A stretch of DNA of 46,010 nt, filler included, from Jimgerdemannia flammicorona (lineage: Eukaryota), in assembly GCA_003990765.1 (NCBI GenBank). It is 2 parts of 2 records of this genome, joined end to end, with 100 filler letters (N's around TTAATTAATTAA, not from the genome) between each part and the next. Parts side by side here need not be neighbours in the genome. Positions count along the whole stretch, not along the records: positions 23,061 to 46,010 come from RBNJ01001179.1; 1 more part is not named here. One strand, 5' to 3'. The position numbers and the translations under genes are program-made. Of this stretch, positions 8,426 through 42,563 are shown one piece after another. How positions within the stretch are numbered: the first letter of the stretch is position 1; the number at the start of each line of letters is the position of its first letter. The notes below the pieces were generated by a model. That model made no database searches, was not told the DNA's origin, and worked only from the letters and a program-made list of their open reading frames with translations.

Positions 8426-8555
8426 CTTCTTCATCATCACTGTCCTCTAGGAGGGCTGGTGGTTCATCATCTTCCTCTTTCTCTTCTTCCCTGATCTGTT
8501 TTTCGAGAGCTTTCTGGCTTCTTTCCTGGTAGATCTTCCTGGTTCTGATGGTGCA

Positions 8556-10474: not shown

Positions 10475-10588
10475 CTTGTCTGGGTATTGGGGCTCGGTTT
10501 GTATGGTTGTTCGGGTAGTGGTGGTTGTTCGTTATTCAGCTTGAAAGTGAGGGATTCATCTTGAATCACCAGCCAATGGGCACCAAGT

Positions 10589-15812: not shown

Positions 15813-15845
15813 AGACTGATTGACAACAAAACATATTTCATCATT

Positions 15846-18800
15846 ATGAACAGTACAACCAACATTTTCTCTTTAAACATGAATGGGTTATGGGGTGCTT
15901 CTCGATGTAGGAACATTTTTACTTAGATGAAGGGATTGAAGGCCAATCTCTTCCTCTTGCAGGATGTCCGGTGTGAAGATGACTCTGATAGGATAGAATG
16001 GACAAAGGAATGGGGAGGTGTAGCAATTTGGAAGGGCAAGGTTGGAATTTTGGTTAGGAAAGGCAGAGGGGAGATACAGAATATGAGGAGCTGGGGGGAG
16101 AGACTGGTCTAGGGAGAGTAGATTCAGGCAGACTGGGGGCCAGTTATGGTTGGCTCCTGCTACTGCCCTGCGGTACGGGGTGAGAGAGTAGATTGGGTGA
16201 GAGGCTTACAGAAGAGTGGATTACTTGCAGAGGCTGGGGTGGATATGCTTGGAGGAGATTTCAATATGGTTTGGGACTTACTGTTGGATAGAACAGATGG
16301 AGGACGAGGTGCTGAGAGCAGGAGTGGAGGTCTGGTGGCTTGGGAGAAAGTAAAAAGACTAAGTGCACTAGTAGATGCTAGAAGAGAGTACTGGGGGAAT
16401 AGGAGGGTTTATACACATTGGGTAGGGGGTCTGGGGACTAGAATCGACTGGATTTTGATGGCCAGCTGCTGGGGCCTAGATGTTTGGAAGTTGCTGGAGG
16501 TGGAATGGTGTCCATAGTCGGATTACTGGGGGCTTTTGGGACAGGGGTGCTTTGGGGGAAGTGGGGATGGGCCTGGACATTGGTGCCTCAATTTCTCTTT
16601 GTTAGATGACAAGACCCAGTAGGATGAGTGGGCTAAAGACATTCAGCTGAGGGTAGAGAACTGGAGGCAGGAAGGGGCCTCAGTTGGGACTTGGTAGATG
16701 AGGATGAAGGAAATGGCCAAGATTTATTGGAGGGAGGCTGGTAAGGAGGCAGGGAAGCAGCAAAAGCAAAGAGTGTATTGGGCCTCCGCTAGATTGACAA
16801 GGCTCCTGGAGGAGTGGGCAAGGCTGACAATGTTGGAGGGAGAAGCAGATTGGCGATTAATGATGGCGAAAATGGAGGTTGGGGAACTTCAACAGGTGCT
16901 GCGGGAGGAGGAAGAGGCAAGGGTATAGAGCTTGGCAGCGCATCTTTGCTGGCAGGATCTGGAGGAAGGAGAGAGGCCTTCCAAGCTTCTTACAAGGGCC
17001 CTTAGGGTGAGACGGGTACAGTAATGGTGGGAAGGAGTATTGGACTCTGACAGGGTACTGGTGCATGGTGTACAGGATATTCTTGGATCGCTGAAGGAGA
17101 GATAGAGTGGATTGTGGAGTGAGGAGGAGGGTGGGGCAGATGCCGATATAATTGAACAAATATTGGAAGATTGGCACCCACCACAAGTTGAAGGGCTAGG
17201 GGATCTGGTGATGCCTGTATAAGAGGATGAGATTCACCAGGTTCTTGCTGCGACAATGCCAGATATGGCACCTGGGGAGGATGGTCTGCCCTGGGACTTT
17301 TGGAAGCGAATGGTTGGAGTCCCAGGGGTAATGAGAGAGATGACAGTATTGTGCGACCTTATTCTACAGACAGAGAGGTGGGTGGGGGAGCAGGACCTTG
17401 GGCTGGTGACACTGCTTTACAAAAACAAAGGAAGGTGGGAGGATTGGAAGAACTGGCAGCCAATAATGTTGCTAGATATGGACAGGAAGTTGGTAACTAA
17501 GGTGGTGGTGGCAAGACTACAGAAGGTGGCCCAGCAAGTCATGGGTGTTGAGCAGAGGGGATTTGTGGGTGGTTGGCTCATCAGGGATGGTACTGCCTAG
17601 GTACATGGCATTATCGAAGGGGCAAGAGCCTGTGGACTGGATGGGCAGCTAGTTTTCTTGGACCAGGAGAAGGCATATGACCAAGTGTGAAGAGTCTGGC
17701 TGGTGAAAGTTTTGGATAGAATGGGGGTTCTGCATCAATTCTGGTCAGCAATGGTCAGCCTACTGGAAGGGAGTAGGGCTGCCCTCATATGTAATGGACA
17801 TAGAGGGGTAGTGTTCCCGTTGGATAGAGGGGTGCCCCAGGGGGACCCATTGTCCCCCATTTTGTATACTCTTTCCCTGGAACCCCTTATGGATAGAATT
17901 AGACAGCAGATAGAGGGGCTCTCTGTCTTTGGCATAGGATGGAAAGTTGGGGCCTTTTCTGATGACATGGTAGTTGGTTTGAGTTCAATTGCTGATGTTG
18001 AGGAGCTCAAGAAGACTGTAGAGTAGTATGAGGAGTACTCTGGAGCTAAGTTGAATTGGCATAAGTGTGAAACAATGGTGCTAGGCAATGGCCTGGTGGG
18101 AGGGGAAGTTATAGGAATAATTGTCCCCACCAGTGAAGCAGTGCAGTACTTAGGTATCTACTTGTCAGTCTATGGGTCAGTTCTGCCCAGGCTTTGGTGA
18201 GAGCAGAGGATTGGAATCTGGGAGGAGGTCTTGCAGAGTTGGGGGGGAAGACATTTTTCTCTGGCAGGGAGGATCTTGATTTTGAATGTCTACTGGCTGC
18301 CAAAGTTGTGGTACCTGGTGTATCATCTGGACTTCCCAGCCTGGGTGGTGAAGAGATTGATAAAGTTGGTGAAGAGATGGATTTGGGCTGGCAGGCAGAG
18401 TCAGATTAGTTGGGAGACCTTGTCCCTACCAGTGGCAAGAGGCGGTCTTGGGCTGGTTGACTTTCCAAAATAGTTATACTGCTTGCGAGCATGGTGGCTG
18501 AAGAGAGCAGTGGAGCTGAGAGGAGGTGGATGGGTTCCTCTGCTACAGAAGATTTGGGAGAGGGGGGCATCGCCAAGGGGCTCAACTGGTAATCTCCTCT
18601 CCTTAGTTGGGCTTCAGAACACTGGACAACTACGATATAAAGGATTTTGGTGGGGGATTGCAGAAGGGGTGCACTGCATTGGTATTCACTGGCAGGGGAA
18701 TGAAGGGGAGGAGGATTGGGACCTGGCAATGTAGAGATGAGATCGTATACTGCTGGATGGCACTCCTTTAATTAAGTTCGACATTGGGGATGGAATGGAA

Positions 18801-19502
18801 TGCCAAAGGGGACCAAGTCAGGATCTGTGGCCTAGTGGTTGGCAAGGAGTTGGAATTGGTGAGGAGTGGAACTGGCATGGTGTGTAGACCTGGAGTACTA
18901 CAGTGAGAACATAGCTGCCGCCAAAATACTGTGTGGTCTGGTGGTGCATGCTGCAGAGGAATATTATGCTCAACTTTCACTCGGGGCACCTTGTAGTAGG
19001 GGGTTGCTTCGACTGTGAGGAGTGTCATAATGTAGGGCAGGTGGGGGGTTATGTACAGACACCAGAACATTGGCTAGGAGAGTGTGAGGTGTTGGGGGAT
19101 TTTTGGCAGACAATTGGGGATCGCTTGGGGGTATGGGGTAGGGGTGATGAAGTATGGGGGAGGTGGGAGGACTTGAGAGATAGATTGGTAGGGGGGATAG
19201 GGAAGGAGTGGCTTACTTTGGGTTGGGCTTTAGCTATTTGGGTAGGGCTGGCCAGTCATTGACTATTTGTTTTTGAGGATAGGAGGAGACAGAATTTGGA
19301 GGACTGGTTGCTGTGGTGGCATAGGCTTATGGAAGACACCTTAACAGGCTGGTGGCTGGGTTGGGGGATGTGGGGTGGTCGGAAGCACCATTTAGTGGAG
19401 AAAATCTGTGAGCAAAGTGGGGGGAGAGTTGGGGTAGTTGGTGAAAGAGTGATTTTCATTCGTGAGGAGGTAGGGAGGGGCCCCCCTGTGGGGATTGGAT
19501 AG
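15846..19502 (+). pseudogene. LINE C ORF2 (APE endonuclease, RT, C-terminal Cys/His motif)
   Basis: FSLNMNGL, LLQD, LGGDFN, RIDWI; APGEDGL, GVPQGDPLSP, FSDD; CFDCEEC..TPEHWLGEC. Confidence 0.92.
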
Positions 19503-19613
19503 TGGGTAGGAATGATGTATATTTATTCATAGACTGGTAATAAAGGTGGAGTCCAAGTGACTATAAAAAACAAAAAAAAAAAAAAAAAAAAAAAAAAAGA
19601 GACAATGTGGCCA

Positions 19614-20830
19614 AGGTATTTGACTTGTTCCTTGAAGAATTCACACTTCTTGAGCTTAGCATAAAGCTTGTGTTTTCGCAGGATCTCTAGAACTATTTGA
19701 ATGTATTTGAGGTGTTCTTCTTTAGTTGCACTAAAGATCAGGATGTCATCAAGATATATCAACAGGAAAATAAATAATTGGTTCTTGAATATCTTATTCA
19801 TCAGAGTCTAAAATGTGGTGGGTGCATTGGTGAGACTAAATGCTAAGACCAGGAATTCATAGAGTCCAAAGAAGGTCATGAACACAGTCTTGGGAATGTC
19901 TTCTGGCTTGATTCAGATCTGGTGGTATTCTGATATAAGGTCTAACTTAGTGAAGTACTTGGCATTCTTGAGAGCATCAAAGATTTGATCAATCAAGAGT
20001 AATGAGTAGCAGTTCTTGACAGTGAGTTTGTTGAGTATACAATAGTCTATGTATATTTACAGGGTATCATTCTTCTTCTTGATGAATAAGACTGGTGAGC
20101 CATAAGGAGATTTGCTTGGCTAGATGGCTCCTCATGCAAGTAGTTCTTCTAGTTCCTTCTTAACTACTTCAATTTCAAGTAGCAAAATGTGGTATATATG
20201 TTTCTTGAGTAGTACAGCTCCTGGGCTCAGTTCAATTTCATGATCAACTTCTTGTATAGGTGGTAGACCAGGTAGCTTGTCTGGAAAGACATCCTTAAAT
20301 TCCTCTAGCAATAGCTTGATGCTTTTATTGACTGATAGTCTCTTGTCTTGTTTCTTGGGATGGATCATTACAACAAAGATATGTATTGCCTTCTTAAGTA
20401 CTTTCTTGTACTGTATAGCTGACAGTATTGCAATCTGGGTCTTGCTCATAGTCTTGTCTGTCTTGATCATAATGTTGGCTCCATCTTGAAGTAAGGTAAC
20501 TTCATTCTTATATCAATCAATGTCTGAGTTGTGTTTCATAAGTCAGGGTTTTTCTAAGATCAGATTATGATCTCCTAGTAGTGCAACTTCAAAGTCTACT
20601 CATTTCCAATATTTTTGGATCTTGATGGGCAGTTTGGTGGCAATTGACTCAATGGAGTGCAGAGTACCATCTGCAGTGACTATACTATTGTTCTTGGGTA
20701 CAGACTTAGTAAGGATCTTGAGGCTTTCAATGAGATTCTAGTTGATGAAGTTCCCTGCAGCTCCACTATCTATGAGTACTTGAACTTCTTTTTCTTTGAC
20801 TAGGCCTTTGAAAATGAGCATAGCTTGAGC
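19614..20830 (-). pseudogene. Element A protease and RT N-terminus
   Basis: VLIDSGAAGNFIN, FKDVFPDKLPGLPP, IYLDDILIFS. Confidence 0.9.
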
Positions 20831-20849
20831 TCGATTTTCACTAAGACTT

Positions 20850-21275
20850 GCTGCTTGATCAGTGCTGCCAAAACTCTTTTGATCTCATTTGGTTTCAGAG
20901 AGTTCTTAGACTTCTGTAATCTTGAGTTGACTGGCTTTTTTCAGAATCATTTGTACAACTTGGTCTCCTTCTTTAACTGTGTAGTTTTGATCCTTCTAGT
21001 TGATAAGCAAGACTTGAACTTGTCCTCAAAAGTCTGGGTCAATGATACCAGTACCTACATCCAAATGATGTTTGATACTGAGTTCTGATCGCAGTGCAAT
21101 TCTAGCATAATATCCTTTAGGGCATTGAACTGCAATTTCAGTAGACACCAGAGTGCAGCCCTTGACTAGAATAGTGACTTGTTTAACTGAGTGTAGGTCA
21201 AGACCAATGGCTCCTTCTATTTGATATTGAGGGACCTGGGCCTTTGGATAAAGCTTCTTGATTTTGAGCTTAAGT
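20850..21275 (-). pseudogene. Element A dUTPase (between Gag and PR)
   Basis: GAIGLDL, RIALRSELS, GIIDPDF*G, GDQVVQMI, KSFGSTD. Confidence 0.88.
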
Positions 21276-22340: not shown

Positions 22341-22805
22341 TGTAACAGTTCTAGTTTCTTTAAGAGAAAGTAACTAAATCTGGAAGTTCTGGTTGACCTA
22401 AAGTAGCTCAAAGAGATACCTAAAGGTTCAAGTGTTCTCAAAGGATTTCTAGAAGAAAATATTCTGAGCTTTATTCAGGTAGAGAATAAGGATATTTATA
22501 CATGATCTAAAAGAAAGATCTGGAAGGATCTTAGAAAGAAAGAGAAATACCAAGAAATAGGTTCTCAGCAAAGCTGACTAATACTATTCGACAATGTTCT
22601 AAAAGGTTCATAACTAGCTAAGACAAAGTACTTGGTGCTAAGGAAAGATAAGAATGTTCTAGTAGTATCTGGGTGCTGAGAGAAGGTTTCTAAACAAGTA
22701 GAAGGTAATGGAACATAGTAGAATGTTTAAGAAAAGATAAGAAAAGACTAACTAAAAGACACAAAAATGTACTAAGACTAAATATATGATAGTGAAATTG
22801 TTACA
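22341..22805 (-). repeat. 5' LTR of element A (465 bp)
   Basis: TGTAAC..GTTACA; colinear with 4059-4336 + 11065-11254. Confidence 0.93.
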
Positions 22806-22960: not shown

Positions 22961-23060
22961 NNNNNNNNNNNNNNNNNNNNNNNNNNNNNNNNNNNNNNNN
23001 NNNNTTAATTAATTAANNNNNNNNNNNNNNNNNNNNNNNNNNNNNNNNNNNNNNNNNNNN
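22961..23060. other. Assembly gap with TTAATTAATTAA spacer
   Basis: N runs flanking a palindromic linker with stops in all frames. Confidence 0.95.
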
Positions 23061-24283
23061 TAAAGTCCCTTGGACTGACCTTTATTACTGATGTCTATAA
23101 TTCTAACAATACAATGTCACCCCCAACCTCAACCAATGCCCCGTGGACCCAACCCTCTCCCCTCCACCTCTCTCTGCCCAAGTACTACCAAATTACCCAT
23201 CACCCAAATCCTCTCCCCACTCTTCTGGAAGATACACTGCACCAAACCCCGGCGATTCCCCCCACCCAGCCCCCACCCTCGCCACCAGCTATTCAAAATG
23301 TCTAATAGTAACCATTCCCAATGTGCCACCTTATCCACAACCCCAACCCACTGTCTCTCCTCAAAGACATGAACTCAATGCCCAGCCAACCCAACCCACA
23401 TGGCCAAAGCCCAACTAAGGGTCAGCCATTCATCCCCAACCCCACCCACCAGTCACTGGCAGAGCTCTCCCCATCTCCCCCCTTTCCCTCTCTCCAAGGC
23501 ACACAGCCCTACCTGGTCCATAATATACCTCCAAAACTCCTCCAAAACCTCACACTCACTAAGCCAATGTTCAGGCATTTGTACCACCCCTTCCTCCTGA
23601 CCAACATTGAAACAATCCTCATACTCGAATACTCTACCATCCACTAAGTGCCCAGACCAATAGTTCAATATCACATTCTACCATAGGACATACCACTATA
23701 TCACTCAGAACTTGGGAGGCAGCCACTGCCTCACTCATTTGCTCCAAAGCCAGAATCCATTCCAATCCCACTCCTCACCAATTCCAACCCTCTGCCAGGC
23801 TTCGGGCCACAGGTCTCCACCCAGGCCCCGCAGACACTCCAAACCCTCACCAAGCTGAAAATTCTCCACTGGAACACCACCCAGTAGAAGCCTGTCCCAA
23901 TGCCACATCTGTAGTTCCCAATCCTCCTCAGCTTCATCACCTCACCAACAAAGTCTAATTTTCTTAGTACCATCCACCACCCCCTACTAGAAGCTGGTAA
24001 ACCACATCCTCCTGCTCCTATCCATAGCCACCATTGTGAGCAGGTCACCAGAGTCACTACGAAGGGAATACCAAACCTCCCACAATCTCTACATAAGTGG
24101 CACCCACTCCTGACCTCTAAGCTCACTCACTCTTCACAACCACCAAGCTCTCAAACATTGAAGCCACTTAGTAAAGTCAACTAAGCCTAGCCCACCTCTT
24201 TCCAAGAGCAGTGTGAGCACCTCCCAACTCACCTGACTTTGCCGCTTCCCCTAGATCTATGACCTCACCATCTTCAACAGCCC

Positions 24284-26347
24284 TGTAAGAGGGTTGCTTT
24301 TTAGGGTAACCATTATGTAGTTCTGGAAGGGTTTTCTGGAAGTTCTGGATATTCTGGAAGACTGTTTTCTTATGGTCAAGATCAATTTCATATAGAGTAT
24401 GTCCTCTATGCTTATTGATTTCAAGATCGAGTTGACGTCTCAACCAAAGTCCTTTTTTGGACTAGTTCTGGATGTTCAGGATTTTCTATATTTCAGGAAG
24501 TTTAAGAAACTAAGACCAGCTTAGTTGAATTGGCATATCACTGCAAACAATACCCAATTAGGAAATTTCATGACGGGGTTAGGAGTGGGACCTAACAGAG
24601 AGTGGATTTACTTAAGAGTAGTTTGTGGGTTATTAAATAAGTTTATTCGCTATTCATAATATTGCTATACTAGGAGTATTTGTATAAAGGGATATTGTGG
24701 GGAAGTGCTCAGGAGTTGTGTTTGAATTGTTCAGGTCTGAGATTCTGAGGTCTGGGAGAGGGGGTATTTATACTAGTGAGGGCTATCTGGGCTATGCTGA
24801 ATATGGATGTAGTACTAAGTGCCTTGCTGAGTTGGAATATAGTCACATAGTACAAGTGTAATCTGATATGTCAAGAGATTGTCTGACTGCTGAGTCAGTT
24901 CACAGTTACGTCATATAAGGCTAATCTAACTATACTATGACTGCTAAGTTATTTATAGGTTTAGACACTGTCTGGGTAGTCTTCAATGACATCACCATTG
25001 ATGATATCATCTCTGATGAAGTAGTCATCTAGGAAAAATAGTTCACGGATTACTTCTCCTTGTTCGCTGAGGTAATAATACATTGGAACTTCATCACTAT
25101 CCCACAGGATAGCATCATCTGTCTCATATGCTGGATAAGGTATTGGTGGGCAAAAGAGTGGTGCATTGTCTTTGCTTTTATCAGATTCGCTGTCTACATA
25201 CCTTCTGTAGGTTACAGCACTATGAGTCATGGGATTGTAGTATGCTGGTGGCTGTGGTTCATATTGCTCATACTCGGGTGGTGGGGTGGTTGGTTCGATC
25301 TCGAGGGTTGTCTGAAGGTACAGGTTGTGTTCTCTGGTTTCTTCATTGTAGTTGAAGTAATCGGGGGTAAATACGGATTGGTATTCATGCTAGTGATCAT
25401 TGTCCCAGTAAGTCTCATAGGTAGTTATGAACTACTGTAAGTTCATTAGCAAAGTTGGCGGTGTGATCAGGGTTGGTAGAGATCCTTGGCTTGAGGTCAT
25501 GTCAGTATCAGAGGGATCATTGTCTTCTGCTTCATCTTCATCAAACCGGATTATATCGTAGATGTCCTTCATAGTATATCCAACTTGGAGCATTTGTAAG
25601 ATATGATCATTGGGGTGTGGGAAGGTTCTGTCTGTGGTTTCAATATATTCAAGATACTTGTAGTTGAGTTCTTGTATCATGTCATCGATTTGGCCATAGG
25701 ATAGGGTAGCAACCATTTCAGCTGTAGTAACTTGGAGGTAGGGAATAATACTGCTATATTCATAAAAGAGTTCTCGGTGTTTGCGGGTGATGAGCTTCTG
25801 GTGTTGAGACATCTGGGTAATGTCTATATTGTGGTGATGTTTGACCATGTCTTCCAGGAGGCAGCTGATCTGGTAGTAGCTTGAGATTTATCCGATTCAG
25901 TGAGCCTCGCTAAGCATGTTCAGAGCATTCCATCGGGCTTCCACAAAGTAGAGGGGTGCTAGGCTATGGATATTCATGAGGGGCAGAGGGAGTGTGGCTT
26001 GGTTGACAATGGCATTCCAAATGTCAGCGTGGATATGGGTGTAGATCTTGGTAGTCATGTTTGTGTGTTTTGGAAGTTGTGGTTGTTGTTTGTTTTGGTT
26101 CTCTGTTTTGATGCATCTCAATGCTCGGTATATATATATTTGGTCCTGATTGGTAAGATTCTGTTTGTGTGAATCTTATGTTCTGTGACTTTGTATTGAC
26201 TCAGCTTTGTATGCTGTGACTTCAGTTTGACTCAACTTTGTGATCAAACAGATGATTTCCAGATTTGTTCAGGGGTCGCGTGTGATTTCAGTGGCTTGTT
26301 CAGAGGGTGACGTGTAATTTCGGTGGCTTAGAGGTTGTGTGCTTACA
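24284..26347 (-). repeat. 3' LTR of element D
   Basis: TGTAAG..CTTACA; colinear with 32715-34778 at offset 8431. Confidence 0.95.
24961..26058 (-). pseudogene. LTR-encoded ~365-aa accessory protein, copy 1
   Basis: Track ORFs 25897-26121, 25432-25848 and 24961-25230 share one frame; stops are C>T/G>A-type and several are sense codons in the other LTR; TATA at ~26129-26140. Confidence 0.8.
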
Positions 26348-26774
26348 ACTCTCCCCTTCTTAGCTTTTGACATCCTCGTCAGAGCCTTCTAATTTTGTTC
26401 TAGTATTATTATACCATTTGGGAGGTCAAAAGTTTGGTAAGGTCCATTTTTCTCAGAAAGTAGCATGCTTATAGTACAGTTGCCTAATGTATTGGATTCA
26501 CACGTTAACGGGTTGTGTATTCAATACCATGCGCCGGAAGTGATTCTGACATCATTCACTGCTGAAGAATTTCCTCTAAGGAATCTTCTTAAATGTCTAT
26601 GCCTTGTTTCCCACCAGTGGTATAGAGAGAATAGGCTTACTTTCAGTTTTGCTATTTTTCCAGAGGGTCGGTATTCTTGTCTTGTTTTGCTGAGTTCTTG
26701 ATTTGGTTTATGATAATTATAATGTTTGGGAGGTATAATATATAGTATGTATAGATAGGTATAGAGTATTGGTT

Positions 26775-28200
26775 TTAGTTGTTCAAGGAATTGTATTCCT
26801 GAACTAAGTCAGTAGCATTCTGGAGGTTGGTCTTGGGTTCCCATATTGCATCATGGATTGGATAATCTTTCCATTTAACAAGATACTCAGGGTGGTTCTT
26901 GTGGCCACATTTGTTGAGGATTTGTTCAACTTCATACTCTTCTTGGTCATTAATAATGACAGGTGCAGGTGGTTTCATGGTTCGGTTAGGGAATAGTTCA
27001 TCATCATTCTCATTATATCGCTTGAGATATTGGACATTAAAGACTGGGTGAATCTTAATGGTATCTGGTAGCACTAATTTGTAGGAGGTTGGAGAGACTT
27101 GTGCAATGACTTCGAATGGTCCAATGAACTTGCTGTTCAGCTTTGTAGATGGTCTGTGCTTGAGGTTGTCAACTTGGTATCCTTGGATGTCTAGTAGAAC
27201 CTTTTCTCCAATATCAAAGGTTTCTTCTCAGCAGTGTTGGTTAATGTACTGTGACTGTTGTTTTTGAGCTCGTGATAAGTTCTCGATGGCAATCTGGCTT
27301 AGATTGTGCATTCAGAGTAAGAATTCTTCAACAGCTTCAACTGTAGAGGGTTCTTCAGTAGCTTGGATGAGTGTCAAAGGGGTGTTTGGGTTCTGTCCAG
27401 TATTGGCAAAGAATGGGGTCATTTCCAGGGAGGCTTGCTTACTGTTGTTATAAGCAAACTCAACTGTGGTCAGGTGTTCATGCCAATCATCTTGTCTGTA
27501 GGAAACATAGTTCCTTAGCATTTGTTCTAGAGTTCGGTTCATTCTTTCGGTTTGGCCATCAGTTTCTGGGTAAAAGACTGTGGATAGTACAAGCTTTGTT
27601 CCAAGGTGTGCATGGAGGGCTTTCCAAAAATGGCTGGTGAATTTCAGGTCTCGGTCACTAACAATGATCTTAGGAAGACCATGATAGCAGAAGATGTTAT
27701 CAAATAAGAGTGTGGCTATATCTGGTACTGTTACAGTAGTGGTAGTAGACACAAAGTGGGCTTATTTGCTGAGGTAATCCACAAAGACAACAATTGCATC
27801 TTTCCCGTTCTTGGTTCGGGGTAGCTGTACAATGAAGTCCATAGAGATTTGTTCCCAATTAGCAGATAGCACTGGGATAGGGTGGAGTAGACCAGGTTTT
27901 GCTAGTGTTGAGGACTTGTTCCATTGGCAGGCATCACAGGAAGTGATGTAGGTCTTAAGCTGATCTGCTATGCAGGGCCAATAGAAGTTTCAGGAGATAA
28001 CTTCATAGCATTTATCAAATCCTAAATGTTCAGCTGTAGGGGCATCATGATATTTGAATAGGATAGTTTTTCGGAGGTCTCGGTTGTTTGGAATATACAA
28101 TCTGTCCTTGTAGTAGATAGCATTGTCCTTGAGTTGGTATTGATTGTACTGGGTATGTTTGTCAGCATCATCACTGTTCAGGACTTCACAGAGTACTTGA
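26775..28200 (-). pseudogene. Element D integrase and chromodomain
   Basis: HDAPTAEHLG, SDRDLKFTSHFW, TDGQTERMN, EEYEVEQIL..EYLVKWKDYPIHDAIWEP. Confidence 0.93.
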
Positions 28201-30230
28201 GCTTCTTTATCATCAGCGCATACTGTGATAATTTGTTCCATGATGGAGTTTGTAACTAAGGTGAGAGTTTGGATAACTTCTTCAATAGGTGGTCTGGAGA
28301 TTGCATCAGCAACAATATTTTCCTTGCTAGGGCGGTATTGGATTTCATAATCAAAGTTGGTGAGGACTTTCATCCATCTGGCTTGCTTTCGAGAAAGGGT
28401 AGCCTGAGTCTTGATGTTGACTAATGACTTGTGGTCAGTCAATACAGTAAAGTGTGCTCCTTCTAGATATGGTCACCATTTGATCAGAGTATCTACAATG
28501 GCTAGCATTTCCTTCTCATGAATTGTATAGTTAATTTCAGTATCATTGAACTTGTGGGAATGATAGGCCACAGGGTGTCCTTCTTGTATGAGTACTGCTC
28601 CAAGAGCTAGGTTAGAGGCATCAGTAGTAACTTCATATGGTAGGGCAGGATTTGCCGCTTGAAGTACTGGAGTGGTTATCAGGGCATCTTTCAGTACTTG
28701 AAAGGTGGTATCTTATTCAGGTCTCCAAGTTACAAGATTGTTGAAGTCTTTCTCTTGTTTTATGGTCCAGGGTTGTTCTTGTTTCTTACTGTACTTGGTC
28801 ATTTGAGTGAAGGTGGTAGTGATTTTAGCAAAGTTGGCAACAAATTGCCTGTAATAGTTTGCTAATCCCAAGAATGACTGGAGGTCTTTCAGCTTCTTGG
28901 GTCTGGGCCAATCTTTGATTGTAGAGATTTTGCTGGGGTCCACTTTGATTCTATTTGGGGTGACAATGTGTCCAAGAAATTGAATTTCTTTCAGGAGAAA
29001 TTTGCACTTGCTGAGTTTTGCAAAGAGTCAGTTTTCTCGGAGTTTCAGTAGTACTAGTTCAAGGTGTTCAAGATGTTCCTCCAGGATTTTGCTGAAGACT
29101 AGGATGTCATCAATATAGACAATAACAAATTTGTCCAGGTATGGGTGCAGGATAGTATTCATCAAGGTCTGGAAGGTTGCAGGAGCATTAGTTAGGCCAA
29201 AGGACATAACGAGGAACTCGAAGTATCCATAGTGAGTTCGGAAGGCTGTCTTGTAGATGTCTTCTTCTTTCATGGCAATTTGCCAGTAACCATTTCGCAG
29301 ATCAAAAGAGCTCATGAATTGTGGGTTAGTGAGCCTATCGAATATTTCATCGATTCTTGGTAGTGGGCAACAGTTTTTGATGGTTTGTTCATTGAGGTCA
29401 TGATAATCAATGTACATTTGCAGGTCTCCTCCTTTCTTGACAACAAAGAGGACTGGTGTACCATAGGGTGATACACTGGGTCTGATGAATTCTTGTTCTA
29501 GGAGTTCATTGATTTCCTTCTTGAGTGCATCAATTTCTCTCAGAGACATGTGGTAGATTGACTTGAAGGCTGGCTTGGCATCTGGGATGGTCTTGATGGC
29601 ATGGTCTACTGCTTGTTTAGGAGGTAGGCCTTTTGGAAGCTTCTTTGGGAATATGTCTCGAAATTTCTGGAGTAGTGGTCTGATATGGCTGTCAACTTTG
29701 GAAAAGTCTTCTTCAGAGTTCTCAGGTTCTCCTTTGGATGGATGGATGGAGATGGTGAAGAGAGGGTATTTCTTGGCCAATTTCTTAAGTTGTAACTTGT
29801 TGATATGAGTAATCTTTGGTCCAGAGTCACTAGAGTTAAGTGGGTCCTTTTCACCTTGCAGTTTGAAGTTGTGGTGTCCTTTCTTGATGGTCAGAGAATG
29901 GTTTACCCAATTGATCATAGGGTTCTCTTATTTTAACCATGGAGTCCCAAGGATGATTTCATTGTCAGGAAGTGGTATGATTTGGAGGGTAATATGTACT
30001 CGGTAGTCGCTGATTCGGAAGGGTAGATTGCAGACTTCTTTGCTAATAACATGTGAGATTCCATCAGCTGTAGCAACTGCTTGAGTTTATTGTACTGGAG
30101 AGGTAAAGACCTTAAGTCTGTTGGCTGTTTCTTTATTGATGAAGTTGCCTGAGACACCACTGTCTATCATAATCTTGACAGGTGCTCAGTTGATAAAAGC
30201 TTTAAGTGTAAGCAGTTTGTCTGATCCAAT
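28200..30230 (-). pseudogene. Element D protease, RT and RNase H
   Basis: [50 protein letters not shown]. Confidence 0.93.
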
Positions 30231-30279
30231 AGTAGTGATTTCAGTTGTAGGGGCTTTCCTTCTGTTGTTTCTTCTTGTT

Positions 30280-30690
30280 TGATGAGCTAAATCCTTTGAA
30301 TCCTCAGATGGTGGGCAGTAGTTCAGGGACTTCCTTGACTGTCAGGGTTGACTTGATTTTTTCAAATAGGATCTGGGCTATGTAGAAACCTATGGGGATC
30401 TTGAAGGGTATCCAACTATGGTTTCAGATGAGGACAATAATTTCACCTATATAATCTTCATCAATAACTCTTCCTTCTACTGAGAGTCCTTTCAATGCTA
30501 GGCTGCTATGACAGTATATTCTTCCAACATGTCCTTCAGGAATTTGGATACTGATTTCTGTATAGACTTGTTTGACTTCTCAGTTGGAAACTGTAGCTTC
30601 TTCGGCTGCATACAGGTCATATCCAGCTGCTTTTTGACTTCCTTTGATTGGGGCCTTAGCAGTTTGTCTTAACTTGACAAAGTCTAGTAT
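30280..30690 (-). pseudogene. Element D dUTPase (between Gag knuckle and PR)
   Basis: Manual translation: KAAGYDLYA, GRIYCHSSLA, RVIDEDYIG, IAQI, *GFKGFSSS. Confidence 0.88.
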
Positions 30691-30699
30691 TCTGGTGGT

Positions 30700-32680
30700 C
30701 AGGTTGTTGAGGTGGTGCAGAGTGGTAACCATTGCTCATGTGGCTGTTCGGGGTTTTCGGTTGGGGCAGGCACTGGCCATATGTCCTGTCTTTCGGCAAT
30801 AGAAGCATGCTCTGCTTCTTCAAAGTTCATTCCTTTCGCCTTCAGTAAGTTTCTTGAAGGTACTTGGCTAGGTGGGTTCATGATTTCTGGGTGTCCAAGA
30901 GGTAGATATGGAGGGAGCTCAGGATGCTTCATGCTTGGGTTCTTCTTTCTTGGTCCAAGTCTTTTCCTTGCTATTGAATTGTCTTTGGGGCAGAATTGGT
31001 CCAGCTGTTAGGATTCGCTTGACCATGGTCTTGATTCTTACCAGGCACTATTGTTGGTAATCACAACCAACTGGGTGGCCTTGTTCTTGGATTTTTCTAG
31101 TAAGCCATTCAGGCAGTGCATCAAATAAATAGTCTGCTCTTGTACCATTTCGTGCTTCATCATTGGCAATGTATCCTAGGCCAACAGTGTTCAGGAGTGA
31201 CTCAAGTTTTGTACAGAAGGTTTCGAATTCTTCTTTACCATGTACATCAAATTTGAGGTTGTGGAGTTTTACTCGAGATTCAGCAATCATGGTTTCACTG
31301 TAGTATTGAGCAATCATGAGTTGTTTGAGTCCAGGGGCTGCAGGATGGGCTCCATATCCTGGGGCATTGTTTGCTGCATTCTGAGCAACTACTGCAGGTC
31401 GGGTAACCTATGTGAGGGGTTTTTCAGGAAGGGTTCACCACCATTCTTTGGCAGGTCCTTGGAAGAATGTAACAACTTGGCGGACATAGGCTGTAGTGGT
31501 AGCAAAGAGTTGTTCCAGAGTGTAGTCTTGATTGTTTATCAGAACATGGTCAGCAACTCACTCATTGGTCCATTGATTGGCTTCAAAGTTGGTGTCAACT
31601 ACACTAATAAAGCTTTGGACTTCTTGTGCAGTACCATTGAAGGTAGGTAGGCTCAGATTTTTGGTAGGTCAGGTCTGTTCCACTAAGGCAGTAATGGTTG
31701 CTGCCATTATTGCTACCTGGGCTGTGAGGTCTAAAATCTGTTGGTTCACCATATTGTTTACTGGAGGCAGTTGGAATACTGGTAGTGGTGTTACTGGTAC
31801 TACTTGAGGTACTGGTGCAGAGTGTGATGGGGTTCTTTGAGTCTGTGTAAGTTGCTGGAGTAGTAGTTGTGGATCTGGAGTAAGGGCTTGATAGATAACT
31901 GTTTGTTACTGTGTAGGTGTATTTAGTCCTGATGGAGGTACTTCTTCTTCAGTGGTATATCCAGAATCGAATTCACTGAGATACTCCTCCTCTTCTTCGG
32001 TTTGGTCCCTGTATAATTGGGTTTGCTCAGCATCAAAGTAGATGGAATCAGTTATATATCTGATTTCAGATAGACTTAATTCAAAGTCGAGTTCAGGTTC
32101 AGTGTTGGTTTCAGATTCAGGTAGGGCTGTAGCAGGACCTGCTTCAGGTTTGGGGTCAGGTAGTTGATGAAGGGTTTCTCTTACTTCTTCTTTAAGAATA
32201 TGGCGGGCCTTGCTGTTCTGGAATTGGTAGTATAATGCAGTCTTGGTCCTGGTATGGTGAAAGTCAGTAGAGTTGAGCCACTTGGCTATAGAGGCTTGGG
32301 CTTCATGAGGAACTAAGGCTAGAAAGACTGCTACTGGTTATCCTAGGTTGCTTGGGTTTGTAGAGCTGATAAAACTCTTATTGAGAAGAGTAAAAAAGGC
32401 TTCTATAAGACCTTCTTCATCTTGACTTACTGGGTGTAGTGTAAGGAGTTCAGTGAATAGGTGTTTGCCTATTTGCTGATTTAATTGGAGTACTTCTTTT
32501 TTTGAATAAAGTTTGTCCTACTTGTTGCAGGTGTGGAGATCAAATTGTCCTTGTATGTCAGATTCAATTCTCTCCAGATTGTCAGATGGTTCAGGATAAA
32601 TTCCAGTTCAGAGGTTGGGCTTTATACTAACTTGTAGGAATTCACAGAAGGGTTTGTAGCAGGGTGAGGAAACATCTTGA
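30700..32680 (-). pseudogene. Element D Gag with long N-terminal extension
   Basis: CFYCRKTGHMASAC knuckle at ~30765-30810; capsid-like LPTFNG at ~31640; the same frame extends upstream to ~32620. Confidence 0.8.
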
Positions 32681-32714
32681 AGTGGAATTGGATTGTAAAC
32701 CGCTGCTACCAAGT

Positions 32715-34778
32715 TTTAAGAGGGTTGCTTTTTAGGGTAACTGTTACATAGTTCTGGAAGGGTTTTCTGGAAGTTCTGGATATTCTGGAAGACTGTTTTC
32801 TTATAGTCAAGATCAATTTTATATAGAGTACATCCTCTACACTTATTGATTTCAAGATTGGATTGATGTCTCAACCAAAGTCCTTTTTTAGACTAGTTCT
32901 AGATGTTCAGGATTTTTCGTATTTCAGGAAGTTCAAGAAACTAAGACCAGCTTAGTTGAATTGGTGTATTGCTGCAGACAATACCCAATTAGGAAATTTC
33001 ATGATGGGGTTAGGAGTGGGACCTAACAGGGAGCAGATTTACTTAAGAGTGGTTTGTGGGTTATTAAATAGGTTTATTCGCTATTCATAATATTGCTATA
33101 CTAGGAGTATTTGTATGAAGGGATATTGTGGGGAAGTGCTCAGGAGTTGTGTTTGAATTGTTCAGGTCTGAGATTCTGAGGTCTGGGGGAGGGGGTATTT
33201 ATACTAGTGAGGGCTATCTGGGCTATGCTGAATATGGATGTAGCACTAAGTGCCTTGCTGAGTCAGAATGCAGTCATATAGTACAAGTGTGATCTGACAT
33301 GTCAAGAGATCGTCTGACTGCTGAGTCAGTTCACAGTCATGTCGTACAAGGCTAATCTAACTATACTATGACTGCTAAGTTATTTATAGGTTTAGATACT
33401 GTCTGGGTAGTCTTCGATGACATCACCATCAATGACATTATCTCTGATGAAGTAGTCATCTAGGAAAAGTGATTCACGAATTACTTCTCCTTATTCGCTG
33501 AGGTAATAATATATTGGAACTTCATCACTGTTCCACAGGATAGCATCATCTGTCTCATATGCTGGATAAGGTGTTGGTGGGCGAAGGAGTGGTACATTGT
33601 CTTCACTTTTGTCAGATTCACTGTCTGCATACCTTCTGTAGGTTATAGCACTATGAGTTGTGGGATTGTAGTATGCTGGTGGCTGTAGTTCATGTCACTC
33701 GTACTCAGATGGTAGGGTAGTTGGTTCGATCTCGAGGGTTGTCTGAAGGTACAGGTTGTGTTCTCTGGTTTCTTCATTGTAGTTGAAGTAATCGGGGGTG
33801 AATGCAGGTTGGTATTTATACCAGTGATCATTGTCCCAGTAAGTCTCATAGGTAGTTATGAACTACTGTAAGTTCATTGGCAAAGTTGGTAGTATTATCA
33901 GGGTTGGTAGAGATCCTTGGCTTGAGGTCATGTCAGTGTCAGAGGGATCATTGTCTTCTGCTTCATCTTCATTGAACTGGATTATATCGTAGATGTCCTT
34001 CATAGCATATCTGACTTGGGGCATTTGCAGGATATAATTGTTGGGGTGTGGGAAGGTTCTGTCTGTGGTTTCAATGTATTCAAGATACTTGTGGTTGAGT
34101 TCTTGTATCATGTTGTCGATTTGGCTGTAAGACAGGGTAGTAACCATTTCGGCTATAGTAACTCAGAGGCGGGGAATAACACTGCTATACTCATAGAAGA
34201 GTTCTCGGTATTTGCAGGCAATGAGCTTCTGGTGTTGAGACATCTGGGTAATATCTGTATCATGGTGGTGTTCAACCATGTCTTCCAGGAGGCGGCCGAT
34301 CTGGTAGTAGCTTGAGATTTGTCCGATTTAGTGGGCCTCGCTAAGCATGTTCAGAGCATTCCATCAGGCTTCTACAAAGTAGAGGAGTGCTAGGCTATGG
34401 ATATTTATGAGGGGTAGAGGGGGTGTGGCTCAGTTGACAATGGCATTCCAAATGTCAGCATGGATATGGATGTAGATCTCAGTGGTCATGTTTGTGTGTT
34501 TTAGAAGTTGTAGTTGTTGTTTGTTTTGGTTCTCTGTTTTGATATGTCTTGGTGCTCAGTATATATATATTTGGTCCTGATTGGTAAGATTCCATTTGTA
34601 TGAATCTTGTATTCTGTGACTTTGTATTGACTCAGCTTTGTGTACTGTGACTTCGGTTTGACTCAGCTTCATGATCGAGCAGGTGATTTCCAGATTTGTT
34701 CAGGGGTCACGTGTGATTTCAGTGGCTTGTTCAGAGAGTGACATGTAATTTCAATGGCTTGGAGGTTGTGTGCTTACA
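32715..34778 (-). repeat. 5' LTR of element D
   Basis: Direct repeat of 24284-26347; terminal TG mutated to TT; PBS adjacent. Confidence 0.95.
33392..34489 (-). pseudogene. LTR-encoded ~365-aa accessory protein, copy 2
   Basis: Same ATG and stop positions as copy 1 at offset 8431, with a partly different set of mutational stops. Confidence 0.8.
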
Positions 34779-37700
34779 AGCCCCTTGACCACCTAGGTTG
34801 GGAAATCCAAATGATATCCCACATACTATAGCTTTGGTATCCAATACACATTCAGCACCATCACCCTTCTGGCTAAGGACATATGCCGACCACTCCATCA
34901 CAGTAGAACATTTCCTCACTCCAGAAGTTGATGGTCCCACCATGCATGGGGAAGAAGAGATCTGAACACTAAGAAGTAGATCTCCAAATAACATACTGAT
35001 TCACTAGCCAGTACCACTGTCCCAATTATATCGCCACTAACAATTCTAGTACCCAGCACCAGAGTCTCACATTTGTGCCAGTTTAGTTTAGCACCAGAAC
35101 CCCTCTCATACTATTCCACAGACCTCTGTAACTCCCCCACATCCATCAAGGAGCCCAGCCTGACCACTATATCATCAGCAAAGACCCCCACCTTCCAATT
35201 AATCTCTAAAATGTTCAAATCCCCAATCTGATGCCAAATTCTATCTAGTAGAGGCTCCAAGGAGAGGGCATACAATATGGGCAACAAGGGGTCCCCTTGT
35301 GGTACCCCACATCTCAGGAGAAAGGTCATCCCCCTGTAGCCATTGATGACCAATGCTGTCTGACTGTCCTCCAAGAGACTGATCAATGATCCTTAGAACC
35401 CTGGGGGGATACCAATCCATTTCAGTACTCCCTCTAGCCAGATCCTCCACACTCTATCATATACCTTCTCTTGATCCAGAAATACCAATTGGCCATCCAC
35501 CCCTATTGCCCGGGCACCTTCAATCACTCTATATACCCAAGCTGTCCCATCACAAATCAACTGGCCACCAACAAACCCACACTGCTCTACACTAAGCACC
35601 TGCTGAGCAATTCCTTGCAGCCTCATCACTAAGATCTTTGTCACCAGTTTGCAGTCCATGTCGAGAAGCATGATTGGCTGCTAGTTCTTTCAGTCTTCTT
35701 GCCTCCTCTTATTCTTGTAGAGCAAGGAGACTAGCCCTAGGCACTGTCCCCCAATCCAAGCACCAGACTGAAGGACCCCATCATACATAGCAGTCATTTC
35801 CTTTAGCACCTTGCCCACCCCAGCCATCTTCTGCCAAAAATCCCAGGGAAGTCCATCCTCTCCTGGAGCTATCCCCTTACTCATTAAGGCCACAACCTTG
35901 CAAATTTCCTCTCCACTCACCGGGTCCCCCAAAGTCCCTAGGCCCATCGCAGGGTTCGGGTACCAATCTCCCAGCTGCCTTTCAATGTCTAAAGCATCCA
36001 CTCCTCCATCCTCCTTACTCCATAGATTCTCCCAACTAGTTCTTAATAAGCTCAGAATCACCAGAGTCCCCACCACTAGCTTGCCATTCACATCCAGAAC
36101 TCCCTCTCACCACTGCTTCATTTGTTATACTTATAACAACTGCAACAAAAACCTAGTAGGCCTCTCTCCCTCCTCAAGCCCCTGCCACTGCAGTTGGGCC
36201 ACTATTCCCTGCAGCTTCACCTCCTCCTCTCTTTATAACACTCCTTTAAGCTCCTCCACCTCCTTCTGGATTCTCACAATATGCCAATCAGTCACCTCCC
36301 CATCTTCCAGCATACCTGCCTATCTCTCCATGAGTGCTGCCAGATGCCATGAGATCCACAGCACCCTCTGCCTTTGCTGGGCACACCTTTCTTTCCCTGC
36401 TTCCCTCCAATATATCTGAGCATTCACCTTCAGTCTCCTCCAGTGGTCCCCAATCCCAAGGCCCTGTTCCTGCCACCTTCTGATATTCCCAACAACCTCT
36501 GCTTCCCAACCCTCCCACAAAACCCTATCCTCCAATAAGGAAGAATTTAGCTGCCAATGTCCAGGTCTATCCTTACTTCCCCCAAACCTCTTCCCTCCAA
36601 GCAGCCCCCAGTGATCAGACCATGGGCACTAAACTACTTCCAGTGCTAACCAGACATCTGCTCCCCAATACTCTGCTGTCAAAACCCAGTCAATCCTGGA
36701 GCCCAGCCCTGCTGCCCAGTGGGTGTACACCCACTGATTGGCCCAAAAATGTCTTCCTGAGTCTACTAAAGAACTCAACCTCTCTGTCTTCAGCCAGTCA
36801 CCCAACCCACCACTTTCACCCCACATGCCTCTCCCTCCATCTGTTCTATCCATCTCCTTATCCCATACCATGTTAAATCACCCCCCATACAGTTCAGCCC
36901 AACCTCTCCCAATATACCAGCCTCTTTCAACCTGCGAATCCAGTCCACCCTCTCCCCTCTCTCAGCTGGGCAGTAATAAGACCCAACCATCAATGAGCCC
37001 CAACCAGGCCTCTTTCATATTCCCTACACCACCCAAGACCCCCAATGTCCAATGCTCTCAATGTCCCCCATCCCTTTCTGAATGAGAATACCCACTTTCC
37101 CCCTCCATACTACTGCCCCCCCCCCATTCCTTAGTCCAATCCTGCAAATCCACATCTGCCTCATAATGAACATCCTGTAACAAGAAGAGGTCCACATCCA
37201 GTCCCTTAAGCCATCCAAATATATACTTCCTCCTAGCTATCCCCTGTAACCCATTAACGTTCAAAGAGAATATCCTAGTTATACTGTTCATATTGAAAGA
37301 ATGTTGCAATAGAGACCCTAGCCTAGAATTCTATGCTCATCTCATCCCCAGCCAGATCTAAGTGCTGTTCAGCTTCCAAGTCACCCTCTGCATTAGCCTG
37401 AGTATCCAGTGCCTCCAAGATTTCCTGACATTCCACCCCATCCACTACCTCTATCTCCAACCAGTAATCTAAGCAGAATGCGCATCACTTCTCCAGTCCC
37501 TTTCTCGAGTTCCACAAGAATAGTGCCCTGTTACTCACAATCCTCCTAAGTTCCTCCTCTCTCTGATCATCGACTTAATATTCAACCAACTCCAGGAGAA
37601 CAGTCAGGATCTCATTCCTCATCTTCCTCAGTACCTCCTCCCCCTATAGGATCTCCTCCCAATGCCTCTCTTCCATCACCCTGAAATCCTCACCCCCCAG

Positions 37701-41842: not shown

Positions 41843-42560
41843 TATAAGAGGGTTACTTGTTAGAGTAACCATTACATAGTTCTGAAAGGGTTTTCTGGAT
41901 GTTCTGGAAGATTATTTTCTTAAGGTCAAGATTAATTTCATATAGAGTATGTCCTCTACACTTATTGATTTTAAGATCAAGTTGATGTCTCAATCAAAGT
42001 TCTTTTTCAAACTAGTTCTGGATGTTCAGGATTTTCTATATTTCAGGAAGTTTAAGAAACTAAGACCAGCTTAGTTGAATTGGTATATTACTATAGACAA
42101 TATCTGATTAAGAAATTTCATGATAGAGTTAGGAGTAAGACCTAATAGGGAGTGGATTTACTTAAGAGTAGTTTGTGGGTTATTAAATAAGTTTATTCAC
42201 TATTTATGATATTGCTATACTAGGAGTAGTTGTATAAGGATATTGAGGAAATATTCAGAAGTTGTGTTTGAAATATTCTATATATTCAAGTCTGAGATTC
42301 TGAGGTTTAGAGGAGGGGGTATTTATACTAATAGAAGGCTATCTGGACTATACTAAATATGGATATAGTACTTAGTGCCTTACTGAGTCAGAATGTAGTC
42401 ATATAGTATAAGTGTGATCTGATATGTCAAGAGATCATCTGACTGCTGAGTCAGTTCACAGTTATATCATACAATGCTAATCTAACTATACTAATAACTG
42501 CTGAGCTATCTATAGATTTAGATACTATCTGGATAGTCTTCAATGACATCACTATTGATA
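41843..42560 (-). mobile_element. Truncated older copy of the element D LTR
   Basis: Aligns to ~24284-25000 with many more transitions. Confidence 0.92.
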
Positions 42561-42563
42561 TCT

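Follow-up and report, generated by a model that had tools for sequence, protein, structure and literature searches.

The retrotransposon family represented by element D of Jimgerdemannia flammicorona probably carries a real accessory gene that lies wholly within the U3 region of its 2-kb LTR, and that would have its own promoter and encode a protein serving the element. The evidence supports the underlying frame as real coding sequence that is open in the family. In element D itself both copies of the gene are pseudogenes. The DNA analysed here (the window) is a stretch of 46,010 nucleotides from assembly GCA_003990765.1, made up of two parts joined by 100 filler letters, and all positions count along this stretch. 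The positions of the features are summarized in Table 1.

The reading frame within the LTRs of element D

Element D is a Ty3/gypsy chromovirus that is complete in structure and decayed in sequence. Pfam identifies, in order along the minus strand, RVT_1, RT_RNaseH, Integrase_H2C2, SH3_Tf2-1 and Chromo, and a tblastn search with P0020 as query places dUTPase-PR-RT at 29088-30495. The pol order is PR-RT-RH-IN with a C-terminal chromodomain. The paired LTRs are 91% identical and are flanked on either side by the same 5 bp, and both a primer binding site (PBS) and a polypurine tract (PPT) are in place.

Table 1. Features of element D and of the related LTR E, with positions in the window.
Feature	Position	Strand	Remarks
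Element D	24284..34778	-	Order: LTR, PBS, gag, dUTPase, PR, RT, RNase H, IN, chromodomain, PPT, LTR
TSD GGGCT, upstream copy	34779..34783	.	Direct reading
TSD GGGCT, downstream copy	24279..24283	.	Direct reading
5' LTR of D	32715..34778	-	2064 bp; begins TG, ends AA in place of CA
3' LTR of D	24284..26347	-	2064 bp; TG..CA
PBS TGGTAGCAGCGG	32700..32711	-	3 nt past the 5' LTR
PPT AAGAAGGGGAGAG	26349..26361	-	One base ahead of the 3' LTR
LTR-borne gene, 3'-LTR copy	24961..26058	-	365 codons and TAA (24961-24963); stops at codons 54, 57, 209, 223
LTR-borne gene, 5'-LTR copy	33392..34489	-	365 codons and TAA (33392-33394); stops at codons 20, 42, 54, 109, 209, 265, 333
Tandem duplication	26265..26329	-	32 nt x 2.1; upstream of TATATATATA
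Tandem duplication	26183..26241	-	31 nt x 1.9; TGAGTCA in each unit; upstream of TATATATATA
TATATATATA run	26129..26138	-	70-80 nt upstream of ATG; candidate promoter of LTR gene; twin 34560-34569
Third TATAAATA	24950..24957	-	Directly past the stop codon; twin 33381-33388; not conserved in E
TATAAATA	24765..24772	-	Downstream of gene; twin 33196-33203
AATAAA	24642..24647	-	Sole one on LTR sense strand; conserved in E; twin 33073-33078
Partial related LTR E	41845..42559	-	Matches just the last ~715 bp of D LTR

On the sense strand of each LTR there is one collinear frame of 365 codons, as the initial annotation had reported from the ATG codons at 26058 and 34489. It occupies bases 290-1387 of the 2064 in both LTRs. 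The gene is therefore wholly inside the LTR, as had been claimed, starting 289 nt after its first base, and upstream of the ATG each copy has an in-frame stop, one at LTR base 170 and the other at base 221. The frame is interrupted by four internal stops in the 3' LTR and seven in the 5' LTR, compared with 10-35 per copy in the remaining five frames. Two stops are common to both copies, against 7-27 in the other frames. These lie at codon 209 (25432-25434), which is TAG in both, and codon 54, where TGA in one copy faces TAA in the other; both had been noticed previously. In 5000 shuffled sequences the number of stops averaged 18.6 and never fell below 6, so that none had as few as four. The 3'-LTR copy has a three-base periodicity (chi2 = 69.6, p = 5e-13), and the part of the LTR behind the frame has none (p = 0.58-0.64). 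Codon counts correlate with those of the element's own pol with r = 0.75, as against 0.19 and 0.19 for the two shifted frames, and the position-specific base use resembles that of pol. A crude sliding scan of coding potential did not separate the strands.

The two LTRs align without gaps over 2063 columns, with 182 differences comprising 181 transitions and a single transversion. The transitions fall in CpG (85), CpA (66), CpC (17) and CpT (13) contexts. The near-exclusive occurrence of transitions and the lack of any indel indicate that decay of a cytosine-deamination type broke the copies after insertion. Following integration, C-to-T and G-to-A changes alone, mostly at CpG and CpA, would have created the four and seven stops with no indel. 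Classical RIP was considered and not adopted, the indices being 0.49-1.09 for TpA/ApT and 1.07-1.69 for (CpA+TpG)/(ApC+GpT). Substitutions between the copies are distributed 42:24:41 over the three codon positions, and the ratio of synonymous to nonsynonymous codons is 35:61 (25:66 and 21:68 in the shifted frames). The codon-position bias that had been proposed as a check is thus slight, and gives no clear sign of selection. Since both copies were decaying after insertion, a weak signal of selection is expected, and the result has no bearing on the function of the gene in the family. For the wider family, recurrent indels were collected from contigs of four public runs (3295, 474, 440 and 318 pieces); the 12 listed of 14 all fall outside 24961-26058.

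The related LTR E retains the 17 codons at the end of the gene, together with TATAAATA, AATAAA and U5, and abuts the polypurine tract of the internal region of a different element. As E otherwise lacks the gene, an LTR can evidently do without it.

Open homologues and the predicted protein

We searched 1.84 billion representative proteins exhaustively using phmmer, which gave three matches at E = 0.001 or better. P0004 is a fully open environmental sequence of 128 aa that corresponds to residues 1-128 (E = 1.6e-61) and shares the start methionine. It is identical to the D copies at 96 of 104 residues, counted where both copies agree. P0003, also environmental and fully open, has 247 aa and corresponds to residues 115-365 (E = 3.6e-96); it shares the C-terminus, and 156 of 251 residues (62%) are identical to the frame with two gaps of two residues. 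Together these two independently called proteins span the whole length of the frame. Both come from contigs of about 1 kb and are known here as proteins alone, and databases of called ORFs are biased toward open copies. All nine stop positions have a sense codon in another sequence, including the two shared stops. The D copies differ from each other at 23 N-terminal sites; P0004 matches one copy at nine of these, the other at ten and neither at four, which fits independent decay of each copy. The earlier proposal that the ancestral frame was open is thus borne out by the periodicity, the pol-like codons, and two open homologues with sense codons at every stop that they cover. The remaining match, P0005, is a tandem-repeat protein aligned over 39 residues (E = 3.7e-4), and was treated as spurious.

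Protein searches at near and shorter lengths found no relatives beyond P0003 and P0004. DNA of relatives was not found in metagenome contigs (A2, P0004), viral contigs (A2, P0003, P0020) or genome contigs (A2, P0003). No known family was found by Pfam, PDB profile search or the ESM Atlas. In the latter P0003 had no usable match, and P0004 had only unnamed or unrelated clusters at <=0.93 with a recognition score below the bar. The initial annotation had described the protein as having a family core. We found no such family in Pfam, and a tblastn search against the window returned just the two copies plus the 17-codon remnant at 42521-42571.

The protein is a 365-residue orphan, predicted to be helical in its N-terminal half (about residues 1-170) and disordered in its conserved tail. 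Model confidence is low, with pLDDT = 0.39 for the Atlas model of P0003, and, using AlphaFold2, 30.5 for the full-length protein and 51.3 for P0004, too low for a meaningful fold search. The tail (residues 171-365) contains 22% D/E, 15% aromatic residues (F/W/Y) and 10% proline with a pI of 4.05, in agreement with its previous description as acidic, aromatic and proline-rich. In composition and disorder it resembles an acidic activation domain, although composition alone is weak evidence. The protein contains no basic run, NLS-like stretch or recognisable DNA-binding part, so that a classical transcription factor is not favoured. It also has no membrane segment, there being no hydrophobic 19-mer above KD 1.28. 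Nef is an adaptor, and by analogy the short acidic, aromatic and proline motifs of the tail suggest a Nef-like adaptor.

Candidate control sequences and possible routes of expression

The two TATA sites previously placed on the minus strand are both there, TATATATATA before the gene and TATAAATA after it. Other copies of the family mostly have a different base at position 26136, which still leaves a TATATA core. The two tandem duplications (26183..26329) before the upstream TATA look enhancer-like, and give it promoter-like surroundings. The downstream TATAAATA is probably the canonical LTR promoter. There is a TGACTCA at 24891-24897, about 120 nt upstream of it, the TATAAATA is conserved in LTR E, and an unrelated LTR at 4546-4598 also has the pattern of TGASTCA followed by TATAAATA. 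We take TGASTCA to be an AP-1/Gcn4-type word. It is not enriched in the window, with 16 occurrences against 10.5 expected, and 16 were reached in 6 of 100 shuffles. The third TATAAATA was absent from the initial annotation. The AATAAA is probably the poly(A) signal that marks the end of R.

If the gene lies inside U3, reverse transcription writes it into both LTRs of each new insertion. In active elements the tandem repeats and the TATA run at the 5' end of the LTR would form a promoter for the gene itself, and the transcript would stop at the single AATAAA of the LTR to give an mRNA of ~1.5 kb. Genomic RNA would be driven by the downstream TATAAATA. The protein may act as an adaptor or activator that aids the element via short motifs of its acidic-aromatic tail.

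A real gene might be expressed without a promoter of its own, if transcription from the canonical promoter of the 5' LTR gave an RNA that is spliced to a subgenomic form. The protein would in that case be translated from the 3'-LTR copy, and the upstream TATA would be incidental. MMTV sag is expressed in this way, from a spliced subgenomic RNA made by the 5' LTR promoter and using the copy in the 3' LTR. U3 is present once in the genomic RNA, at its 3' end, so that retroviruses classically use a spliced message. There are several CAG sites between the LTR start and the ATG that might be used, and the window, being AT-rich, has plenty of TATA-like words (107 matches, many within (TA)n runs). 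However, the sequence before the ATG is A/C-rich and not pyrimidine-rich, the run contigs (a poor test of splicing) contain no supported joint ending near the ATG, and the tandem repeats and TATA run directly upstream have the look of a promoter. We consider expression by splicing unlikely. The gene might instead lie in R, with the upstream TATA as sole promoter and an R region of ~1.5 kb, such that short RNAs lead to the protein and read-through provides the genomic RNA. This is consistent with the 245 nt ahead of the upstream TATA, a stretch that holds the two tandem repeats and would pass in length and appearance for a normal U3, and with the position of the lone AATAAA behind the gene. Yet a 365-codon 5'-proximal frame would be expected to keep gag from being translated from the genomic RNA, and the second TATA sequence with its TGACTCA is kept in LTR E, in a pattern that recurs in the unrelated LTR. 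We know of no element with a 1.5-kb R region, and find this arrangement quite improbable.

The frame could also be a passenger with no role for the element, having been part of a host or foreign gene before its capture into U3; passages of the review PMC7264820 describe the transduction of host fragments by LTR retrotransposons, and LTR E manages without the gene. But the 1.84 billion representatives include no host-type homologue, the relatives being from two short environmental contigs only, and codon usage is like that of the pol of the element. Moreover, in a relative as distant as P0003 the frame has no stop and its gaps are all in frame, and the start codon is kept in P0004, making a passenger very improbable. 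The idea that there is no gene, and that one frame of an A/C-rich LTR has few stops by chance, might draw on the stops in both copies, two of them at shared positions, and on the failure to find a family or fold. It is practically refuted by the shuffles, none of which had so few stops, by the strong periodicity and pol-like codon usage, and by the open homologues that were called independently and span the whole length. An accessory gene within U3 with its own promoter is the reading that we prefer.

Relation to known systems and significance

A gene placed within the LTR is otherwise known mainly from a few retroviruses, and the position of the D gene is sag-like. Like MMTV sag, it is a sense-strand frame of about 320-365 codons wholly within a long LTR and carried by both LTRs. 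Sag is a type II membrane glycoprotein, whereas the D protein lacks a hydrophobic segment (maximum KD 1.28), and the host element is a Ty3/gypsy chromovirus with dUTPase and chromodomain, not a retrovirus. There is no sign of common descent, with no Pfam family, PDB match or hydrophobic 19-mer. According to passages of PMC2664473, the MMTV LTR of 1300 nt contains the sag ORF, other orthoretroviruses rarely have such long ORFs in their LTRs, and nef extends into about half of U3. The D gene shares with HIV/SIV nef and foamy-virus bel/bet the coding of an accessory protein at the 3' end of the element, overlapping U3. Those genes begin upstream of the LTR and run into it, in contrast to the D gene which begins inside, and there is no sequence similarity to nef or bel/bet by phmmer against the 1.84 billion representatives or by Pfam.

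The aORFs of plant LTR retrotransposons are likewise extra conserved genes of unassigned function in an element family. The passages of PMC7264820 that treat them assign them to the internal region, in most cases to the part between pol and the 3' LTR, and the text of that review uses neither 'in the LTR' nor 'within the LTR'. The D gene is different in being inside the LTR: the frame with the chromodomain comes to an end near 26778, the last frame on the pol strand stops near 26524, and the gene starts beyond the PPT, once the LTR has begun. The chromoviruses discussed in PMC2864245 share the same backbone, with a chromodomain integrase and a dUTPase domain in the polyprotein. In its text passages the dUTPase of fungal chromoviruses is found at varying positions and a gene in the LTR is not described, and a figure legend names an 'add. 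ORF'. Those relatives of the D RT that carry a name are all from green plants and green algae, whereas PMC2864245 describes dUTPase chromoviruses from fungi. Literature phrase matches for an ORF in an LTR referred to retroviruses (MMTV, foamy virus, HIV) or were in the gag-pol sense, with no retrotransposon case.

LTRs are usually regarded as non-coding control regions, and annotation pipelines mask them before gene calling, so that genes of this kind would be missed systematically. This fits the finding of just two relatives among the 1.84 billion representative proteins. A conserved LTR gene, if true, would extend an arrangement seen in sag, and for part of nef, to the Ty3/gypsy elements, which are much older and far commoner. 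Its dose per insertion would be doubled, and a potentially expressed gene would be left in each solo LTR. More tentatively, the chromovirus LTR might be a complete cassette of promoter, gene and terminator for an orphan acidic adaptor or activator that serves the element, present twice per element and once per solo LTR. If so, it would be the first LTR gene of the sag kind in an element other than a retrovirus, and solo LTRs may remain genetically active once the body of the element has gone. The protein might, for example, boost transcription of the element or blunt host silencing. The LTR gene would be a concrete candidate for a factor that an element encodes to manipulate its host.

The terminal repeats of element D and their decay

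Element D is a Ty3/gypsy chromovirus, complete although interrupted by many stop codons, and the 2064-bp repeats at its ends are its LTRs. Self-comparison of the window gives a direct repeat of 2063 bp (24286-26348 versus 32717-34779) with 91.2% identity, whose edges were refined by direct reading. The LTR at 32715-34778 has a terminal AA in place of CA. The five bases GGGCT flank both LTRs. In the internal region the Pfam domains are ordered, on the minus strand, as reverse transcriptase, RNase H, integrase zinc domain, Tf2-type SH3 domain and chromodomain. The protein P0020 is an intact polyprotein relative of D, 93% identical. The coordinates are summarized in the table.

Features of element D and its LTR
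Feature	Position	Strand	Remark
LTRs of D, TG..CA, 2064 bp	24284-26347 and 32715-34778		edges read directly
Polypurine tract	26349-26361	minus	one base ahead of 3' LTR
TGGTAGCAGCGG	32700-32711	minus	three bases past 5' LTR
dUTPase remnant and protease	29088-30495		placed via P0020
32-nt unit, 2.1 copies	26265-26329		upstream of LTR gene
31-nt unit, 1.9 copies, TGAGTCA in each	26183-26241		upstream of LTR gene
TATATATATA	26129-26138		70-80 nt ahead of ATG
TATAAATA, first	24950-24957		immediately 3' of stop codon
TGACTCA	24891-24897		downstream of LTR gene
TATAAATA, second	24765-24772		downstream of LTR gene
AATAAA, sole one on sense strand of LTR	24642-24647		downstream of LTR gene

The closest reverse transcriptase relative of D has 93% identity. 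Among the best 120 matches, the named relatives, which share 39-67% identity, are without exception green plants, streptophyte algae or a green alga. In the available text of PMC2864245, dUTPase-bearing chromoviruses are on record in fungi. The D family is frequent in soil metagenome runs, and contigs of four public runs (3295, 474, 440 and 318 pieces placed on the LTR) show it to be large and diverged.

At least three nested dUTPase-bearing gypsy families are present in the window. In D the dUTPase lies ahead of the protease, where P0020 is 92% identical; an outer element has the same arrangement at 19688-21064 (minus strand; P0020 36% identical). A second, better preserved Ty3/gypsy element (4337-11064, minus strand) has 476-bp LTRs that are 95.8% identical and a dUTPase between protease and reverse transcriptase (Pfam E 8.5e-27). 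It sits in the LTR of the outer element, the halves of which (4059-4336 and 11064-11252) match 22341-22803. Two G+C-rich stretches (~0.50), 13806-20000 and 36000-40423, show GC skew that is very strong and of opposite sign (+0.46 and -0.54) and are inverted relatives, 13806-14876 being 72% identical to 40423-39348; their long frames at 38109-39212, 39568-40497 and 14781-15638 have no Pfam match. The 44-N runs at 22961-23004 and 23017-23060 lie inside the filler joining the two records.

The two D LTRs align without gaps; of the 182 differences between them, 181 are transitions and one is a transversion. The changes are almost exclusively C/T and G/A, with 85 in CpG context, 66 in CpA, 17 in CpC and 13 in CpT; 54 of the 85 CpG changes constitute 27 dinucleotides that are CA in one copy versus TG in the other. 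The LTRs have therefore decayed by a process of the cytosine-deamination type, methylation-driven or RIP-like. Classical RIP was rejected on its indices. The LTRs at 4337-4812 and 10589-11064 differ by 18 transitions and two transversions; so extreme a bias in both pairs indicates that cytosine deamination has acted strongly on this genome. The observed/expected CpG ratio is 0.01-0.30 in the transposon-filled part and ~1.15 at 2001-4000 and 44001-46000. Such decay creates stop codons without frameshifts, and it makes the 8.8% divergence of the LTRs useless as a clock, so that LTR dating is unreliable.

A coding frame in both LTRs

The initial annotation had described a collinear reading frame in both D LTRs, and reading both copies proved this accurate, including the stops it listed. 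From the ATG at 26058 and 34489 runs a 365-codon frame that ends in TAA. It is interrupted at codons 54, 57, 209 and 223 in the 3' LTR, and at codons 20, 42, 54, 109, 209, 265 and 333 in the 5' LTR, codons 54 and 209 being common to both. The remaining five frames have 10 to 35 stops per copy. Two stops are shared between the copies in the frame, versus 7 to 27 in the other frames, and four or fewer stops occurred in none of 5000 shuffled sequences (mean 18.6, minimum 6).

The frame is a gene on three independent lines of evidence: its composition, its open relatives, and the indels of the wider family. Three-base periodicity is strong (chi2 69.6, p 5e-13), and is absent from the 677 LTR bases behind the frame (p 0.58-0.64). 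Base use by codon position is almost that of the pol pieces of D, and codon counts correlate with D pol with r = 0.75 in frame, but only 0.19 in each of the two shifted frames.

Searched exhaustively with phmmer, a set of 1.84 billion representative proteins gave three hits, one of which, a repeat protein with E 3.7e-4, was discarded. P0004 (128 residues, from a 1180-bp metagenome contig) aligns with residues 1-128, begins Met-Thr-Thr as does the frame in the window, and has the same residue as the LTR copies at 96 of the 104 positions on which these two agree. P0003 (247 residues, from a 998-bp contig) aligns with residues 115-365 and has a matching C-terminus; 156 of 251 residues are identical, and there are two gaps, each two residues long. 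Both are fully open, although they were compared as proteins and ORF databases are biased toward open copies. At all nine stop positions, both shared ones included, P0003, P0004 or the sister LTR has a sense codon. Where the LTR copies differ, at 23 N-terminal sites, P0004 matches one copy nine times, the other ten times and neither four times, as predicted by independent decay of two copies.

Twelve of 14 recurrent indels in the wider family were listed, and all 12 lie outside the frame. This gives the gene modest support, as the 12 form about five clusters. A high-depth contig of 9601 nt from another organism (run X5) matches only the 128 bases 25232-25359, where the tail of the LTR gene is best conserved, with 20 letters differing; it may carry the gene in a more distantly related form, perhaps within another abundant element.

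Codon-position bias had been proposed as a check. Between the two LTR copies there is little sign of selection, as expected of dead copies, with changes at the three positions of 42:24:41 and synonymous to nonsynonymous codons of 35:61 in frame versus 25:66 and 21:68 in shifted frames. This does not count against a gene, because the comparison between LTRs is blind to selection on the active lineage. The proposal that the ancestral frame was open is borne out by the periodicity, the pol-like codons and the sense codons of the open relatives. Overall, that the frame is coding and stands open in the family is well supported, and we consider it very probable.

Candidate promoters and possible exchange of the LTR

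The ATG of the gene is at base 290 of the LTR and its stop codon ends at base 1387. TATA sites had been noted before and after the ORF, and both are present, as TATATATATA and the second TATAAATA. The latter is probably the canonical LTR promoter, given that it is conserved in E, a partial D-related LTR at 41845-42559 (minus strand), and that an unrelated 476-bp LTR (4337-4812) has TGAGTCA ~40 nt upstream of TATAAATA. Over the window as a whole, the motif TGASTCA shows no enrichment. With this promoter R would extend over ~24740-24620 and the gene would lie in U3. The 5' end of the LTR would provide a second promoter, specific to the LTR gene; the A/C-rich leader from TATATATATA to the ATG contains no in-frame ATG.

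E shares with the D LTR only the final ~715 bp, a stretch that takes in 17 codons from the end of the gene together with the second TATAAATA, AATAAA and U5. Since a stub of the frame persists, E looks like a derivative that has lost the gene cassette. The shared part directly abuts a polypurine tract that belongs to the internal region of a different family. This internal-region end (42564-42842) recurs at 1-282, 85% identical, before a different LTR, which begins at 283 with TGTAAGTT; beyond 42564-42842 lies the truncated D-like LTR, at 42559. One internal-region end with two LTRs indicates that families have recombined or exchanged LTRs. A 288-codon open frame at 2861-3724 (minus strand), in AT-rich surroundings of normal CpG content, has no Pfam match; it is perhaps an exon of the host, or else belongs to the LTR beginning at 283.

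The protein and its parallels

The protein was said to have a family core, for which we find no support. Pfam has no family for it (top match GrpE, E 0.023), a profile search of the PDB gave no relative, and the Atlas no usable look-alike. Model confidence is low, with pLDDT 30.5 over the full length and 51.3 over residues 1-128; these models agree in placing five or six helices within residues 1-141, and predict little structure beyond. For P0003 the Atlas model reaches pLDDT 0.39. In residues 171-365 (pI 4.05), D/E account for 22%, aromatic residues for 15% and proline for 10%, and the tail of P0003 is likewise acidic, aromatic and proline-rich. The protein has neither a hydrophobic segment nor a basic run. 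Our best guess, a tentative one, is an adaptor or co-activator whose disordered tail would act by means of short motifs.

In its location the gene most resembles sag, the superantigen gene of MMTV. According to the available text of PMC2664473, the MMTV LTR contains sag and nef extends into U3, orthoretroviruses otherwise being without comparable LTR ORFs. The D gene is inside the LTR, whereas the extra ORFs of plant LTR retrotransposons are in the internal region in the accessible part of PMC7264820, where the wording 'in the LTR' is nowhere used. Phrase matching in the literature for an ORF in an LTR returned only retrovirus papers or other meanings. The D gene has a sag-like position within a Ty3/gypsy element and would encode an orphan protein unrelated to sag. 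A promoter of its own for the LTR gene, a role of solo LTRs as expression cassettes and an activation domain in the tail are each plausible.
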